From a virus (lineage: Duplodnaviria; Heunggongvirae; Uroviricota; Caudoviricetes): 64,000 bases of DNA. The translations under genes were made by a program, and so were the position numbers. Shown piece after piece: positions 26,068 through 64,000 of the stretch (its first letter is position 1; each line of letters opens with the position of its first letter). Location: the IMG/VR virus record IMGVR_UViG_3300017987_005500. The stretch is one strand, 5' to 3'. A model generated the notes under the pieces. The model did no database searches. It was not told the DNA's origin and saw nothing but the letters and a program-made list of their open reading frames with translations.

Positions 26068-29000
26068 AAGTGATTAACCCAAACTTTGTGCTTGATGAAG
26101 AAAATAATATTTTCAGGATTCGAGAAAATGAATTTGGGTCACTTGAGTCCACAATTCGGGAGATGCTAAAACCGGCCGAAGCGCTTGGATTTAGTGTCCC
26201 CGAGTTCGGGATTCGTGATTCAAGGTTTTCGTCACGAGATCTTGCAAGAACAGTAAAACAGAAATTAGTTATTAAATTAGCTAAGGGAGAACATGTTTTA
26301 GATCTCTCAATGGATATTCCAAAATTGATTGATGGAAATTATATCATCATAAATGGAAAACAGAAGATCCCTCAATTTCAATTATTTGATGTTCCAATTG
26401 TAACTCGTGGTAAAAATATAAAAATAAGAACAAATGTAGCAACTGTCGTAGTTGTCCCTAAGAAAGAAGAACCATATATTCATATTACTTTCTTAGGAAA
26501 AATGGTTCCTTTATCATTAATGTTATTTGCATATTTTGGAATTGAAGAAGTAAATAGAAAATTTAACTTAAGTTCTCAAACACCAGCTGACACAATTCCA
26601 ACAAATATGTATGATAAATTGATATCTGATTTAACAATGTTCTATGCTGAATCAGATGGTTATACTCAAGATGACTTTATCAAAGAAGTGGGAAGAATTT
26701 ATTCTCAGTATAACTCAAAATCAAAAGGTGAAGATGTTATGTACGCCTTAGATTTGATAATGGAAACTGATACAATATCAAAGAAACTCTTTATCACAGA
26801 TACTATATTGGATGAAGTTGTTTATGCAATTGAGCACCCTGACGATTTTGATGACACAGACTTTATCAATAAGAGAATAAGATGTTATGAATATATTCTT
26901 TTATCAAAAATATCCAAATATATATTTGACTTATGTATGTCAAATAGGACTGCGAGACAACCGAAATTTAATGTAAATTCAACAAAGATATTATCAGAGT
27001 GTAATGTATCTGACATTGTCCAATTTGATTTTTCAATAAATCCAGTTGAAGAACTTACAAGACTTTCAAGAACAAGTCTCATAGGTCCGGGTGGTTTTAA
27101 AAGAGAAAATGTTCCAGAGCATCTTAGAGATATTTCAAATAGTATGTTTGGCAGAGTTTGCTCAGTTGATACTCCTGATAGAGATAACTGTGGAATATTA
27201 CAAAACTTAGTACCAAATGTTAAACTTGATGAAAATTTGAAATTCACAGATGAAATATTAGAGAAGCAACCCATTTCAATTCCAGTTGCAATGGTACCTT
27301 TCTCAGAGCATGATGATCAAACCAGACTTCAAATGGCATCATCTCAAATGAGACAATCTGTATTAACAAAAAGTTTTGATTCACCTGATGTATATTCTGG
27401 GAGTGAATGGTTATATTCAAAAGAAACCCAGTTTTTGAAAGCAGCAAAGAAAGATGGTGAAGTTGTTTATACAGATGATAATTATATAATTGTTGTCTAT
27501 GATGATAATGAAGTTGATATAATCAATGTTTCTTATAGAAAGATATATGTAGGAAATATGGATTGGATGAAAATATATGTGAAGCAAGGAGATAAAGTTA
27601 AGAAAAATGATATTCTTGCTGAGAGTATGTTTATGAATGATGGTAAAATCAACTTTGGTCGAAAGTTGTTAACTGCTGTAATTCCTTATTTTGGATATAA
27701 CTATGAGGACGGAATTGTTATATCTGATAGAATAGTTGAGGATGATGTTTTCACTTCAATGCATTATGTTGATTTATCATTTACAATTCCACCAAATAAA
27801 GTTTTATTAAGTTTATCTAATGATGGTGAATATAAACCATTACCTGAAGTTAAAGATCCTGGAGGAGGAAAACCTATAATTCATGATAGGATAGGAGTTG
27901 GAAAACCTTATGCTATAATGAAAGATATTAATTCAGGTATACATTGTTATAGTGTATTTGATGAAGAAATTAAACTGACCGCTAAAAAACAAGTGTTAAT
28001 CTCAGAGGTTAATATTTACCCGAACACTTGGAACACTGAAATGCCTCAATATGACAAATGGGTTAAAGATAAAATTGAAAGTCAAAAGAAAAAGCAAAAA
28101 GACTTTCTTAAAATGTTAAAAGATTATATACCAAAATCTCAAATGAGTAAAATTATAAGAGAGGAAGGACTTAATAAATTCTCTCAAGTTGGAAAATATA
28201 GATATAAGAGAGAAGAGATAAATGGTATTCATATTGAGATGTATGGGATTTTTGAAAGAAAAATAAATCCTGGTGATAAGATTGCAAATCGACATGGTAA
28301 TAAAGGTGTTATTTCAAAGATAATGCCAAGAGAAAAAATGCCAAAACTTCCTGATGGGAGACACGTGGATATTTGTATCAACCCACTTGGTATTATAAGC
28401 AGGATGAATATAGGACAAATATTTGAGTTGCATCTCTCAATGTCCGTAAATGATTTAAGACAAAAGATGTTAGAGTCATTGAAAAATGGCGGAAAAAGAG
28501 AAGACCTTATCAATTATTTCCTTGGTTATATCAAATGCATTGACAATACTGAGAATAATTGGTATACTACACAAATGGTGGAGAAGCTAAAAGATATTGA
28601 AATTGACGAAGATTTCATCAATAACATATTTGTAATTCAACCTCCATTTGAATCAGTGACATTAGAGATGCTTGATCAGGCAATGCAATATACAAATACG
28701 GACTACGATTATAAATTACTTGATCCAATGTCAAAAAGTGAAATATTCAATGATATCGCAGTCGGGTATATATATTTCTTTAAAATGGTCCATATTGCTG
28801 AAAACAGATTAGCAGCAAGAGGAATTGGATCTTACTCAAGAAAGACTTTGCAACCTCTTGGGGGAAGAAGGAATAAAGGTGGGCAGAGATCTGGAGAAAT
28901 GGAAATGGCATGTTTAATAGGTCATGACGCTGCCACAAACTTAAATGAATTTACGACTACGAAGTCAGACTGCATTGATAGGAAAAATAGATATATCAGA

Positions 29001-29122: not shown

Positions 29123-29473
29123 ATGAAAAATGACGAGCTAATTATACAAGCCGAGAAAGATATACGATACATATATGAGCAGATGTTAAACATACTTAAG
29201 CGATATGAGCAAAAAGATGTTATTAATGAAATGACATTCTTTATAAATGATGATAATATTGCTTCAGGGTTTGTACGAAAAGGAAATATGACAGATACTT
29301 TATATCAACAAAATATTCAAGCAGTAGGTAAAGACTTAAAACCAAAAATAACAGTGATGGTGAGTAACGGACATATGTCTGTTGCTCACCATCCATCTAA
29401 ATTAACTTCCGTTTTTGTTCAGAAAAATCCAGAAACTGATAAATCGTCGGAAGGGTGGGAGGAAATATGGTAG
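29123..29473 (+). CDS. Hypothetical protein
   Basis: Operon ORF. Confidence 0.55.
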   Translation: MKNDELIIQAEKDIRYIYEQMLNILKRYEQKDVINEMTFFINDDNIASGFVRKGNMTDTLYQQNIQAVGKDLKPKITVMVSNGHMSVAHHPSKLTSVFVQKNPETDKSSEGWEEIW

Positions 29474-58027: not shown

Positions 58028-58888
58028 TTATACAATAGAAATAACTTTTTGTATAATCTCATTTATATTAGGAATATTATCTATAAACCTAATAACTTTC
58101 CAACCTTCATTTTCAATTAATAATTGTCTTTTCTTATCATATTGTTTATCTTGATGCCAATAACTATCATCATATTCAATTGCTATCATTTCACTTGGAA
58201 TTGCAATATCAATTGAAAAATTTAAACATGGATATTCTAGTTTAGTATCATTAAAATAATTAGAAATTATTTTAAATAATTTAAGTTGAGGTTTGGAAAT
58301 TTTAGTAACTCCAGCTCTAGCAGCTAAAAATCCTCCATTTAACATATAATCTCTTTGGTTGTTTCTAAATTCACTTGTCTTTTGATAACAAGGTGTTCCA
58401 TATTTCACCATACATGTATTTCGAGCCTTTAATAAACTTTCTTCACTATGCTTTTTTCCATAAAATGGATTTTTATCTCCTATTAATTTTTTCCCTCTCT
58501 TAGATAAATTACTCTTTAATTTATTTGCTTTATCAAATCCAAATTGTTGTTCATATGTCTTCCCTTTATTAGGATGAACAGAATTTGGTTGATTCAACCA
58601 ATGTTTATCTCCAAGTTTATTTTTTGAAGACTTGTCTTTGAACTTACTAGAATTACACATACATTTAACAGAGCAATATTTATGATGACCAACTACAAGA
58701 TTAACCCATTTTGTATATTGGTTGCATCCTTTATAGTTTCCATAATTTAAACAAATATCATCACCATCATTCTTTATATATTTATCATAATATTCTTTTG
58801 ATTTAATATTATGAATTCTTAAATGACTTGTTAATGCTTTTAAACTTTTGAATTCTTTTCTGCAAATCTTGCATGTAATTATTTTCAT
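58028..58888 (-). mobile_element. Free-standing homing endonuclease (C2H2 finger, NUMOD3-like repeats, DUF559/Vsr-like PD-(D/E)XK domain)
   Basis: CKICRKEFKSLKALTSHLRIH; NPFYGKKHSEES; IDIAI...IEYDDSYWH...GWKVIRF; start moved to ATG 58888 (GGGAG SD). Confidence 0.8.
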
Positions 58889-58976
58889 TTTAATTTCTCC
58901 CGTTAGAAATATTAAAAATGGGTAAGAGAAATAAAACGGGTATTTCTCAAGGTGGCCAGACCCTGTCCCCATTATT

Positions 58977-59782: not shown

Positions 59783-59896
59783 ATTAGTATAAGTATTATT
59801 ATATAGTTTATTTTTATTTATTTATTTTTTAAAAGTCTAAACTTATCAAAGCACATAGGTGCTAATAGGATTATTTGGACGAGAAAGGAGTCAATC

Positions 59897-60772
59897 GTGG
59901 CAAAAGCAGCAGATGAAAAGAAAACAGCAGCATCAAAGACAGCACCGAAACGTAAAACAAAAAGTGAACGTGAAAAAGAACTTGACAAAATGGTCAGGGG
60001 ATTTAAACCTTACTATGTTGATGTTACCGGTGAATACATTTCAACAATTTCGGGTTCCCGCCCTGAGGATACTGCTAAACTTATCAGTAAACCCTCAAAG
60101 ACAGTCAATGAAGAGCTTCATAAAATTATGAAAGCTCAGGTTGAACTCTGCCTGCAAAAGGGAGATATTGAAGGAGCAACTGCGGCAGTAGATGCTTTCC
60201 AGAACTCTGGAAATGATTTTTCAAATCCCCTTCATGTTTTTCAACGGGATGAACAATGTGGCAGAAGACCTTTTCAAGGAGCTTATATGTTCTTTGGTGC
60301 CTTCCGAGATACTATAAAGATGGCATATCCCAAAGACTTTAATATCTATATTAAGGTTAAAAATACATCCGGACCAAGTATAAAGCACTTAAGAAAGTCT
60401 GTGCGAGTTGCCCCGGATCATATTTTCCTCATGAAAGATGAGGATAATTACATGGAAGAAAGTGATATTGTTATTGAAAATCAGCACCCTGTTCCTCCAG
60501 ACGTTAAGGGTTTCTCTCGTTTTGAGATTCTCCCAAAAGGAGCTATTGTGAAATACCGACTTGAAGTTCACAGCTGTACTCAATTCAATGCACTTGCTGA
60601 TCTCGAGCTTGTTAAGAAAGTGATTATCCAAAGTGCCCTTCACGGAATTGGCTCACGACGAGCTTCCGGTTATGGCCAATGGAAAGTTAAAAAGATTGAA
60701 TTCCATGAGATGGCAGCAATGGAGGGAAGCGATGGACAAAAAGAGGATGAAGACGTCAGCAAGGCTGCGTAA
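59897..60772 (+). CDS. Stand-alone Cas7/Csm3-group RAMP protein (putative RNA-guided effector, Vipr-like)
   Basis: RAMP motif order: beta1 YVDVTGEYISTISGS; FQRDEQCGRRPFQGAYMFFGAFRD (P.ipgsslkGalR-like); FEILPKGAIVKYRLEV; C-terminal G-loop HGIGSRRASGYGQWKV; GTG start after AAGGAG; no other cas genes in the window. Confidence 0.85.
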   Translation: MAKAADEKKTAASKTAPKRKTKSEREKELDKMVRGFKPYYVDVTGEYISTISGSRPEDTAKLISKPSKTVNEELHKIMKAQVELCLQKGDIEGATAAVDAFQNSGNDFSNPLHVFQRDEQCGRRPFQGAYMFFGAFRDTIKMAYPKDFNIYIKVKNTSGPSIKHLRKSVRVAPDHIFLMKDEDNYMEESDIVIENQHPVPPDVKGFSRFEILPKGAIVKYRLEVHSCTQFNALADLELVKKVIIQSALHGIGSRRASGYGQWKVKKIEFHEMAAMEGSDGQKEDEDVSKAA

Positions 60773-60797
60773 AACAGTAGCGAGAGGAGGAAATATT

Positions 60798-61013
60798 ATG
60801 GCAAAAGGAATGGCCGATATGATGGTCGAAACTGCGGAGAAACTTCTTGATGGAGAGGTTCCTTTAAAGACTGGTGAAGTCGTTGCCAAAGTAGGTAATA
60901 TACATCAGCTTGAACGCAAAAGAGATCATGATGCTCACGATCGTGGATTAAATGATGAAAATCTTAAAGGTTTTCAAAAGATTTGTAAACAATCTACGAA
61001 AAAGAAAAGATAG
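60798..61013 (+). CDS. 71-aa protein co-transcribed with the RAMP gene
   Basis: GAGGAGG SD before ATG 60798; MAKGMADMMVETAEKLL...KKKR. Confidence 0.7.
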   Translation: MAKGMADMMVETAEKLLDGEVPLKTGEVVAKVGNIHQLERKRDHDAHDRGLNDENLKGFQKICKQSTKKKR

Positions 61014-61023
61014 CAAATGGATA

Positions 61024-61050
61024 ATGGGGCGAGTTATGAGATCGCCCCAT
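61024..61050 (+). promoter_or_regulatory. GC-rich hairpin between the ORFs and the array (terminator/processing/leader)
   Basis: ATGGGGCGA-9nt-TCGCCCCAT. Confidence 0.6.
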
Positions 61051-63028
61051 CCATGGAATATAGTTATATTTATTCCTCTTTCATGGTTTTCTTTTATATT
61101 TAATAGAATGCATAATATATCGAATCCGATCCTATGACATTCTATGTTGTATAATAGAATCCGACGCAATCACATTTTATTCACTAAAATGGGTTGAAGT
61201 TTAACCCATTTGCAATGTGAGCTATGATGCAACCGAATGAAATCATATTAAATAATCTAATAATTTAATTTAATTTGGTTAAATATTTTGTTTTGGTGTA
61301 GAATGTTATTCCATATTATTAATTTTAAATTCCTTACGTTATGATATAATTCAATTTTATTTGATTCGATTTACATATGTAATATTATTTTATGGGACAG
61401 CATCCATTTCAGTTGGATAAAATTCGATATACTATAAAACTTAATTGATTAGCACGTAATTCAATATAATTCCATCCGATCCATTTTTAAAGCAATTCGA
61501 CACAGTACGATCCGGTCGAATAAGTTGTAATTCAATCATATGCATTATTTTATTTAATGCTGTGAAGTATAATTGAATAAAATGGTATTCATAATTCAAT
61601 GCGATGATAAAGAATGCGGTCCTGTCTCATTGAGTCGAATAGAATGGAATTACCTTTTAACTTAAACTTATTTCAACATGAACATATTCAATGCGATATA
61701 ATGCACAATATTATCTCATCCTATTCAGTGCGAAACTATTGAATAAGTTCCTATCCAATGAAATTCACAATTAAATAATGTATGGTAGCTTGTTTTGCTA
61801 TGCGATTATATTTCATCCATAAGTTTTACAATGCCAATAAATAAAATATGCAGTAAAATAGGCATTGAGAGCTTTTGATTTTATGTCATTTTAATCAGTT
61901 AAATCGAATGTCATTCATAAAAGAATATTATTCGTTATCGTATGGTGTGATTCAATTTAATGCTATGTTATCAGATTCACAATAATATACAATGCAAAGA
62001 TTTCCTAAGAGATCCAATATAATTCCGTAAATCGTAAGATTCTTTGCGACTCATTTTAATTCGTTATGGCGCCGTTGAATAACATAATATTCTCTATTCT
62101 ATTTTACCGGTTACGTTCCTATTTGGTAAAATGGTATTTTATTTGATTCAATGATATTTACTTTGTAATACAATGCAAATATGTTCAATACTATGCGTTG
62201 CTATGCGATCCTATTCATTATACATTCAATTTAATACAATATTTTATAATTGAATAAGGTCTTATAAACTTTTTAATCTTACCCGTTCCTATTTAATACC
62301 ATTTAATTCTATAAATTATTCAACTGGTTAGTATGGGGTATTATGGTTTGTAATTACGTAAAATTGTATACATACGTAATATTGATCACTGTATAATTGG
62401 GTATAATACAATACAATCTATATTTCACTGAATTGACTTTTAACGTATCATGCAGTATTATACAATTATGTTCAATTAAATAATGTTTTATGTATTATGA
62501 TATGGAATAAAGTAATGTAGAAAGAAATCCTATCTGATAGCATTTTATACAATCTATATTTGAATTATATCCATTATAATACAGTTCAATGCGATACAAT
62601 ATAATTAAATTTCATTAATGATTCAATGTTACCGGTTTCGATACAATTTGTTAAATTATTATAAATAATTTGATCAGATCGAATTTAATCAAGCATTTCT
62701 TCTTAATATCTGATTGAATGCTATTCAATATATGATGGATGCGACGCCATTCCTTTGAATATTATGAAATAGTATATTATTCATTATTTAATTAGGTATA
62801 ACAACTTTCAATTTTATATTATATCATTCGATAAAATGAACGTTTTAATTGAATCTATTTCTATACGAAGCCGTTCCATGCTATTTTATGCGATGTCATA
62901 GATCTTTTAATTAGATGCTATGCATTTCCATTGATTGGTACCGAATTCTTTACATTTCATTCCAATTCTATCGAATAAATATCTTATATATTTTATGTTA
63001 ACTTTTTACTAAATTTAACTAAATAAAT

Positions 63029-63075
63029 AAATAAGGAATATAATAAAATTAACTAAAAAATAACAAACCTTATTT
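63029..63075 (+). repeat. 47-nt non-periodic element, copy 1
   Basis: AAATAAGGAATATAATAAAATTAA...CAAACCTTATTT; near-identical copy at 63551-63597; terminal AAATAAGG/CCTTATTT inverted repeat. Confidence 0.8.
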
Positions 63076-63550
63076 AATATGTTTTCCAATGCAGTTGAGT
63101 AAAATTCTATTCATGATTAGATATAATAATTTTATGTTTAATACAATATGGTCAAATGTCTTAAGATACAATTTTATTTAATAAATGATTCGATTAATTT
63201 GAATTAGGTTCGATCCATTTACATAGTATTGTATGGAATAAAATACATAATTTGATGGGTTAGGATGTGATAGCTTATGGTATTATTGAATACAATTTTA
63301 TTAATAATTTCATATGATAAAACTCCATATTATTCTATTCTGTCGGGTTACATTCGATCAAATGTATAAAATATTCGTAATTGGATTCTTTGGGATTTAT
63401 TAAGTTTCGATCCTTTTACATCTCATTCTATTTAATAAATCTTTAATATGACTCTATTTGATTAGATGGAGTTCATTAGCACCCTTTTTAATCTAATAAA
63501 ATATACTTTATTTTATATTACTGTATGAGTTTGGGTAATATGAAATCAAC

Positions 63551-63597
63551 AAATAAGGAATATAATAAAATTAAAATAAAAATATCAAACCTTATTT
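63551..63597 (+). repeat. 47-nt non-periodic element, copy 2
   Basis: Near-identical to copy 1, 522 nt downstream. Confidence 0.8.
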
Positions 63598-64000
63598 ATA
63601 ATACCATCCTAAAAGATGTAATTTTATAACATTCTATTTAATAAATCTCTATTAGGATTGAATCTGATATCATGCAGTTGGATAAGTTCCAATAAAATTG
63701 TGTTTTATATATCATAGAATATTATTCATTGATATCCGTTATCTTATAATCCTGTGTCATATAATATCATAAACCATTAATACTTTATTATACTGTATTA
63801 TATCTTATCCAATTATATGAAATCTCATCCACATGGTATAAAATGTGATAGCTTATGGTATTATTGGATACAATTTCATTGATCATTGGATACTTTTGGA
63901 TTCATTCCGATGTCTTATGATCCTATTCAATGTTATTTATATTTTAATTACATCACATTGATTATGTTCCGATCCGTTAGAATTAAATTAAATGCGATTC

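Follow-up and report, generated by a model that had tools for sequence, protein, structure and literature searches.

The downstream end of the 64,000-nt stretch of DNA analysed here (the window) carries a phage-encoded RAMP gene followed by a long non-coding array of five-base repeats, two units of which decode to a common peptide. We consider it somewhat probable that this region is a guide array of the VIPR (Viral Interference Programmable Repeat) type and that the two look-alike units are a duplicated guide, with differences lying mostly on a letter, N3, that would be read weakly or not at all. The locus is placed with VIPR because of the RAMP fold of the protein, the linkage between gene and array in six relatives, the published description of such systems, the codon signature of the free letters, the geometry of the repeats and the pattern of differences within the pair. 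Judged from its sequence, the array fits a VIPR-type system, the kind described in 2026, and the pair would illustrate it neatly without being a new phenomenon. Under this reading the codon-phased logic of VIPR would extend, by sequence statistics alone, to a metagenome-only clade whose constant motif differs, and the pair would serve as a small natural experiment on which unit letters are free to change.

Genes of the locus and anatomy of the array

The gene content of the 64-kb window, including multisubunit RNA polymerase subunits, a tail sheath, baseplate proteins and a tape measure, identifies it as part of a very large uncultured marine phage. The contig to which the window belongs is 72 kb long. 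The same DNA is carried by a 163-kb ENA contig and by four DNA runs from sediment and seawater, and no RNA run is listed as carrying it. A vipr-like gene on the plus strand (59897..60772) encodes a 291-aa stand-alone protein with a G-rich loop, GIGSRRASGYG. Its Pfam RAMPs match is weak (E 0.009). For an AF2 model built from an alignment of 38 relatives (pLDDT 87.8), the top Foldseek matches are type VII Cas7, Cmr and Csm3 (E about 1e-7), and VIA-align gives Z values of 12.6-12.7 to gRAMP, Csm3 and a type III-B Cmr subunit. By its predicted fold, the protein is a RAMP of the Cas7/Csm3 type. HMMER searches against 1.8 billion representatives place it in a family of 46 representatives, and metagenomes are the sole known source of the ten of these that were looked up.

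A small, putatively accessory, vap-like gene (60798..61013, plus strand) begins 25 nt downstream of the vipr-like gene and encodes a 71-aa ORF. Homologues of this ORF, with 25-30% identity and common motifs, lie 3' of the RAMP gene in three related loci (L005, L006 and L007), and family searches found no match for it. A strong hairpin without a U tract (61017..61057, plus strand; -20.6 kcal/mol, z -4.0) separates the two genes from the array. Among 17 window ORFs scanned, the neighbours of the RAMP gene included, there is no cas1, cas2, cas5, cas6, cas8 or cas10 and no integrase-type family.

The guide array itself, delimited by lag-5 autocorrelation and by units called with an HMM, runs on the plus strand from 61060 to the end of the window at 64000 and on to about 64410, its end past the window being read from locus L001. 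It comprises about 57 units in 3.35 kb and is closed by a terminator hairpin with a U tract (64412-64454, plus strand; -24.7 kcal/mol, z -6.4). The tract is AT-rich (24% GC) and, from 61170 on, contains no ORF of at least 60 aa, the longest being 52 aa. Autocorrelation within the array is 0.42 at lag 5, compared with about 0.29 at lags that are not multiples of five, and falls off slowly over lags 10, 15, 20 and beyond; coding regions of the same window show no lag-5 peak. The five-base rhythm is thus beyond doubt. Unit boundaries were set by a five-state HMM that tracks the phase of this rhythm, and the resulting pentamers have the form R-U-N1-N2-N3: letter 1 is A in 72%, T in 16% and G in 10% of cases, letter 2 is T in 89%, and the three free letters N1-N3 have near-maximal entropy. 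Units mostly hold 9-15 pentamers, 55 of them holding at least seven whole ones, and abut with 1-4 extra letters and without a conserved tail; the phase slips by +2 nt at 34 of the 61 unit junctions. A CRISPR array was rejected because Rfam gives no match for the array, CRISPR repeats included, repeat analysis finds no family of identical repeats with unique spacers, and no adaptation genes are found in the 17 ORFs scanned. A reading of the tract as a genome terminus was likewise rejected.

Two A-rich elements, 89% identical over 63021-63076 and 63543-63598, break the pentamer rhythm on the plus strand. The first (63015-63076) lies upstream of the first look-alike unit and the second (63537-63598) lies upstream of the second, in the same order. 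A sigma-70-like promoter match, TTAACT-18-TATAAT, at 63015-63044 (13119-13148 in L001) overlaps the first copy, and the hairpin predicted for the element is weak and not significant (z -1.1). These elements may act as internal promoters that split the array into sub-transcripts. The interval 59800-64000 is letter-for-letter identical in the four DNA runs, which come from three studies (2018 and 2021), and therefore says nothing on which array positions vary. Population turnover of the array is absent in these four runs, unlike in many CRISPR arrays.

Seven homologous loci were compared (L004, L005, L006, L007, L008, L029 and L032), of which six are independent, L007 and L008 having the same protein and an identical array and being counted once. 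All six independent loci carry a five-base-periodic, non-coding R-T-NNN tract beside the RAMP gene at protein identities of 24-44%, and the free letters are unrelated between loci. The arrays of L029 and L030 are identical, and L031, with a gap of 300 nt, is the sole locus that shows no periodic tract. The position of the tract varies: it is upstream of the RAMP gene in L032 and on both sides of it in L005 (L005:1-400) and L006 (L006:1-300). The two-sided arrangement resembles that of Escherichia phage phiSUSP1 (KT454805), the example of type II VIPR, which has one tract upstream and three downstream; we confirmed its layout, in which two genes lie between GGY-NN tracts at 27618-27966 and 29164-29236. 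In L032, 3.5 kb without called genes (L032:1-3490) precedes the RAMP gene, and the rhythm is present only in the last ~300 nt.

The codon-phased code and its likeness to VIPR

The free letters of the array follow the codons of the phage. N1N2 frequencies correlate with the reverse complement of codon letters 1-2 in the phage's own genes at r = 0.92, compared with r = 0.43 for the sense orientation, and neighbouring registers of the array match the other codon junctions. In single-letter composition, comp(N2) resembles codon position 1 and comp(N1) resembles codon position 2. Four other arrays give antisense correlations of 0.85, 0.38, 0.67 and 0.44, with sense values at zero or below. The antisense orientation is favoured by 46 of 55 units; in simulations with gene fragments, an all-antisense array has 45.1 +/- 2.9 units favouring antisense and an all-sense array has 9.8. 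From mean scores, we estimate the antisense share at about 94% of units, relative to coding sequence with the codon usage of the phage. When the units are translated, the frame chosen in the sequence-only reading has the fewest stops of the six (15), with 42 of the 55 units open. Statistically, the guides of this array are codon-phased, with the wobble base set apart. That reading had treated the units as guides whose decoding is meaningful, and the codon signature of the whole array, together with the published VIPR code, argues that it was probably right to do so.

VIPR systems consist of a lone phage RAMP (Vipr), a small vap gene and vrRNAs of 9-16 pentamers (bioRxiv 10.64898/2026.04.26.720920, 10.64898/2026.04.26.720927, 10.64898/2026.10.15.759431). 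In type II, the protein filament sequesters GGY, the constant part, and NN pairs with DNA; every third target base, usually the codon wobble, is skipped (same three preprints). The guides are described as RNAs shorter than about 100 nt that the protein binds. Several features of the present locus correspond to this description. The RAMP is phage-encoded, has a G-loop and stands alone, with no cas family among the 17 window ORFs scanned, and the next gene downstream is the small accessory gene. The non-coding five-base arrays are on the strand of the gene; each repeat opens with a constant purine-pyrimidine part and ends in free letters, a guide holds about 9-16 repeats, and the guides keep step with codons and set the wobble position apart.

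There are also differences. R-U takes the place of GGY as the constant part, and the position matching the first G of GGY is free (1.83 bits, near-maximal entropy), so that three letters vary. There is no structured 3' tail of the kind that follows each repeat tract in type II, nor a pseudoknot, units instead abutting with the +2-nt slip, and the array is very long. The constant A-U in place of G-G-Y and the missing tail count against our preferred explanation. These features do not exclude VIPR, however, because the preprint allows for a 'related consensus', for alternative YNNNG repeats (in its methods only) and for tail-less 'staggered' arrays (2026 bioRxiv VIPR preprints). A further difference is that nearly all units here are antisense, whereas type II targets are reported from both strands (2026 bioRxiv VIPR preprints). 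This antisense bias may point to RNA targeting or to a preference for a single strand. At the sequence level, tblastn of the 291-aa protein against cultured phages gives no match, and hhalign of the 38-sequence family profile against the single SUSP1 Vipr sequence gives a probability of 0.2%, that is, no similarity. Hence, the proposed kinship with the published Vipr rests on fold and context.

In class 1 CRISPR-Cas effectors, each backbone protomer covers a fixed number of guide letters, and a thumb interrupts pairing periodically. The 291-aa protein has the same predicted fold as these backbones (Csm3, Cmr4, type VII Cas7 and Csf2), but the present locus differs from class 1 systems in having no repeat-spacer array, a period of 5 rather than 6, and guide letters that are interleaved with constant letters rather than contiguous.

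In the mechanism that we propose, the Vipr-like protein would polymerise along an RNA of five-base units, hold the R-U letters and present the free letters to the target. N2 and N1 would be the complements of codon letters 1 and 2, in antisense, and N3 of the neighbouring pentamer would lie opposite the wobble letter, which is skipped in published VIPR systems. In the VIPR cryo-EM structures the skipped target base is opposite the GGY that precedes NN (2026 bioRxiv VIPR preprints), a place that would correspond here to the N3 of the preceding pentamer and to the wobble letter of the target.

The look-alike pair

The two look-alike units were located in the sequence-only reading at 63249-63305 and 63833-63883, and the HMM places them, on the plus strand, at 63248..63304 (unit 1, 11 pentamers) and 63832..63882 (unit 2, 10 pentamers), in close agreement. 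Decoding drops the two constant letters of each pentamer, joins the remaining triplets and reverse-complements the result. Unit 1 then decodes to a stop followed by NVQIMLTLP and unit 2 to QNVQIMLTL. Re-extraction of letters 3-5 from ten pentamers starting at 63255 and ten starting at 63833 reproduces the strings originally reported, with the stop followed by NVQIMLTL and QNVQIMLTL in frame 1; the final P of the peptide consists of CC plus one neighbouring letter. The common peptide is thus confirmed. The units are 83% identical over 60 nt, and no other pair of units across the six arrays compared reaches their 13-14 of 14 N1N2 matches.

The pair differs at six of 30 free letters, five of these being transitions, and at one of 20 fixed letters. 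By class, the differences fall at four of 10 N3 letters, two of 20 N1N2 letters and one of 20 R-U letters, an enrichment on N3 (4/10 vs 3/40 elsewhere; Fisher one-sided p = 0.023). It had been claimed that all internal differences are synonymous. This holds for four of the six free-letter differences (GTT/GTC, ACC/ACT and the two-base CTC/TTA); the remaining two, left outside the peptide in that account, give TAA, a stop, in unit 1 and CAG, Gln, in unit 2. Of the two N1N2 changes, one is the Leu CTN/TTR exchange and the other combines with an N3 change to give a stop in place of Gln. When six random differences are simulated, at least four synonymous changes in one stop-free run in any of the six frames occur in 2.6% of simulations with transition bias and in 0.6% without it. 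These synonymy statistics are nominally significant and weak, their base being six changes in one pair.

The scaffold letters are informative about the origin of the pair. Both units depart from the scaffold consensus with TT at pentamer 5 and with GT at pentamer 6; either variant occurs in the array at a frequency of roughly 0.10-0.15, and scaffold letter 1 has no strong dependence on neighbouring letters. Since TT and GT are common to the same pentamers, the units appear to be copies of a single unit rather than separate acquisitions, and on this pattern the pair is best described as one guide that was duplicated within the array. Beyond the unit borders the similarity stops, and the units on either side are unrelated. 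The A-rich copies upstream of both units suggest an old block duplication, followed by replacement or divergence of the units in between.

Under the preferred reading of a duplicated VIPR-type guide, the N1N2 code, which is common to the two units in 18 of 20 letters, would lead both to recognise the same or a near-identical site in a protein-coding gene. With N3 read weakly or not at all, the differences within the pair would look synonymous on translation. If N3 is unread, drift at N3 automatically looks synonymous, and much of the synonymy signal becomes automatic because Val and Thr codons accept any third letter. The claim that the pair is hard to explain by drift was therefore too strong. 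The stop in unit 1 where unit 2 has Gln counts against the duplicated-guide reading.

The best-surviving alternative, which we regard as possible but unlikely, is that two versions of the guide have been kept, each for a variant of the target gene, with N3 read as part of a contiguous triplet code. The CTC/TTA Leu exchange speaks for it: two steps are needed, one at the read position N2, yet the result is synonymous, and a CTN/TTR change at N1N2 is rare under pure drift, which favours the tracking of alleles over a duplicate with an unread N3. Permutation of N3 also gives this alternative some support, since in-frame stops number 24 compared with 32.8 +/- 4.3 after permutation (pooled over five arrays; p = 0.029) and the codon-conditional likelihood of N3 lies above permutations (p = 0.012). 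On the other hand, N3 is 63% purine (A+G), more than the wobble complement predicts; this excess fits a relic of a conserved G. The signal that N3 is read and mirrors the wobble base is hence weak and mixed. The tracking of alleles is further opposed by the non-synonymous TAA/CAG difference, by its reliance on one pair with six differences, and by the absence of a target variant pair from the viral, metagenome, genome and cultured-phage collections, as searched with exact-match pattern scans and, for cultured phages, BLASTn. A more specific version of this idea, in which each pentamer is a codon with N3 read, the antisense bias reflects pairing with mRNA or the coding strand or else templated guide-making from transcripts, and the pair is tuned to two synonymous variants, is in our view slightly more doubtful again.

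It was also suggested that each guide arose on its own, from a different allele of one gene. The end of similarity at the unit borders, with unrelated flanking units, would suit such independent acquisition, but the TT and GT scaffold letters common to the same pentamers, at a position without strong neighbour dependence, and the duplication of the upstream A-rich elements in the same order speak for copying. In addition, no adaptation genes or acquisition machinery are described for VIPR (2026 bioRxiv VIPR preprints), and no cas1, cas2 or integrase gene is present in the 17 ORFs scanned. We consider this origin highly unlikely. Least probable of all is that the tract has no guide function and is a decayed pentanucleotide satellite or structural DNA, in which case a recent local duplication would have produced the peptide by coincidence. 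In favour of this, the tract is rich in AT, looks like a repeat and breaks short-read assemblies. Against it, the linkage of the tract to one protein family is kept across distant phages with unrelated free letters, its units are regular in size (9-15 pentamers), the four DNA runs from three studies agree on every letter of the array, and a satellite gives no reason for the strong codon-phased antisense signature; the satellite reading was rejected.

Target searches and a neighbouring endonuclease-like gene

Searches for the target of the pair used the pattern GGNARNGTNAGNATNATNTGNACNTTNTR and exact two-of-three patterns, with exact matches only. Viral contigs contain no match to the pair pattern, and none to the exact two-of-three patterns of seven or eight other single units. 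Metagenome contigs contain nine matches, which represent three distinct sequences, about the number estimated by chance. Two marine sites among the contigs (L019:604-632 and L025:1413-1441) agree with the degenerate pattern at 20 of 20 read letters and with unit 2 at 19 of 20; they share six of 10 third letters with unit 2 and lie in an ORF-poor stretch with no other unit nearby. These matches are probably due to chance. Genome contigs yield two matches, both in Planctomycetota (54-58% GC), with third letters at chance level.

Within the phage's own 70 kb, units match no better than shuffled ones under six reading rules, and decoded peptides compared with the six-frame translation of the phage contig give a mean z of 0.08. 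BLASTn of both decoded strings against cultured phages gives matches with E = 2-8 only; among these, a match in a Cellulophaga phage endolysin fits 14 of 20 read letters. The sequence-only reading had expected the decoded sequences to find two related genomes, or a gene family with either codon version, and the exact pattern scans and BLASTn found neither. It should be noted that these negative results do not argue against the existence of targets, because the searches are exact-match only; the nhmmer workflow of the VIPR preprint accepts targets that fit at 80% or more of the read letters. The analysis gives two hypotheses for the bench, namely whether or not N3 is read, and whether the target is RNA or one DNA strand.

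Directly upstream of the putative VIPR locus, between the genes for the tail sheath and a virion protein, the minus strand carries a homing-endonuclease-like gene (58028-58972) with a C2H2 zinc finger, a NUMOD3 motif and a DUF559/REase-like C-terminus.
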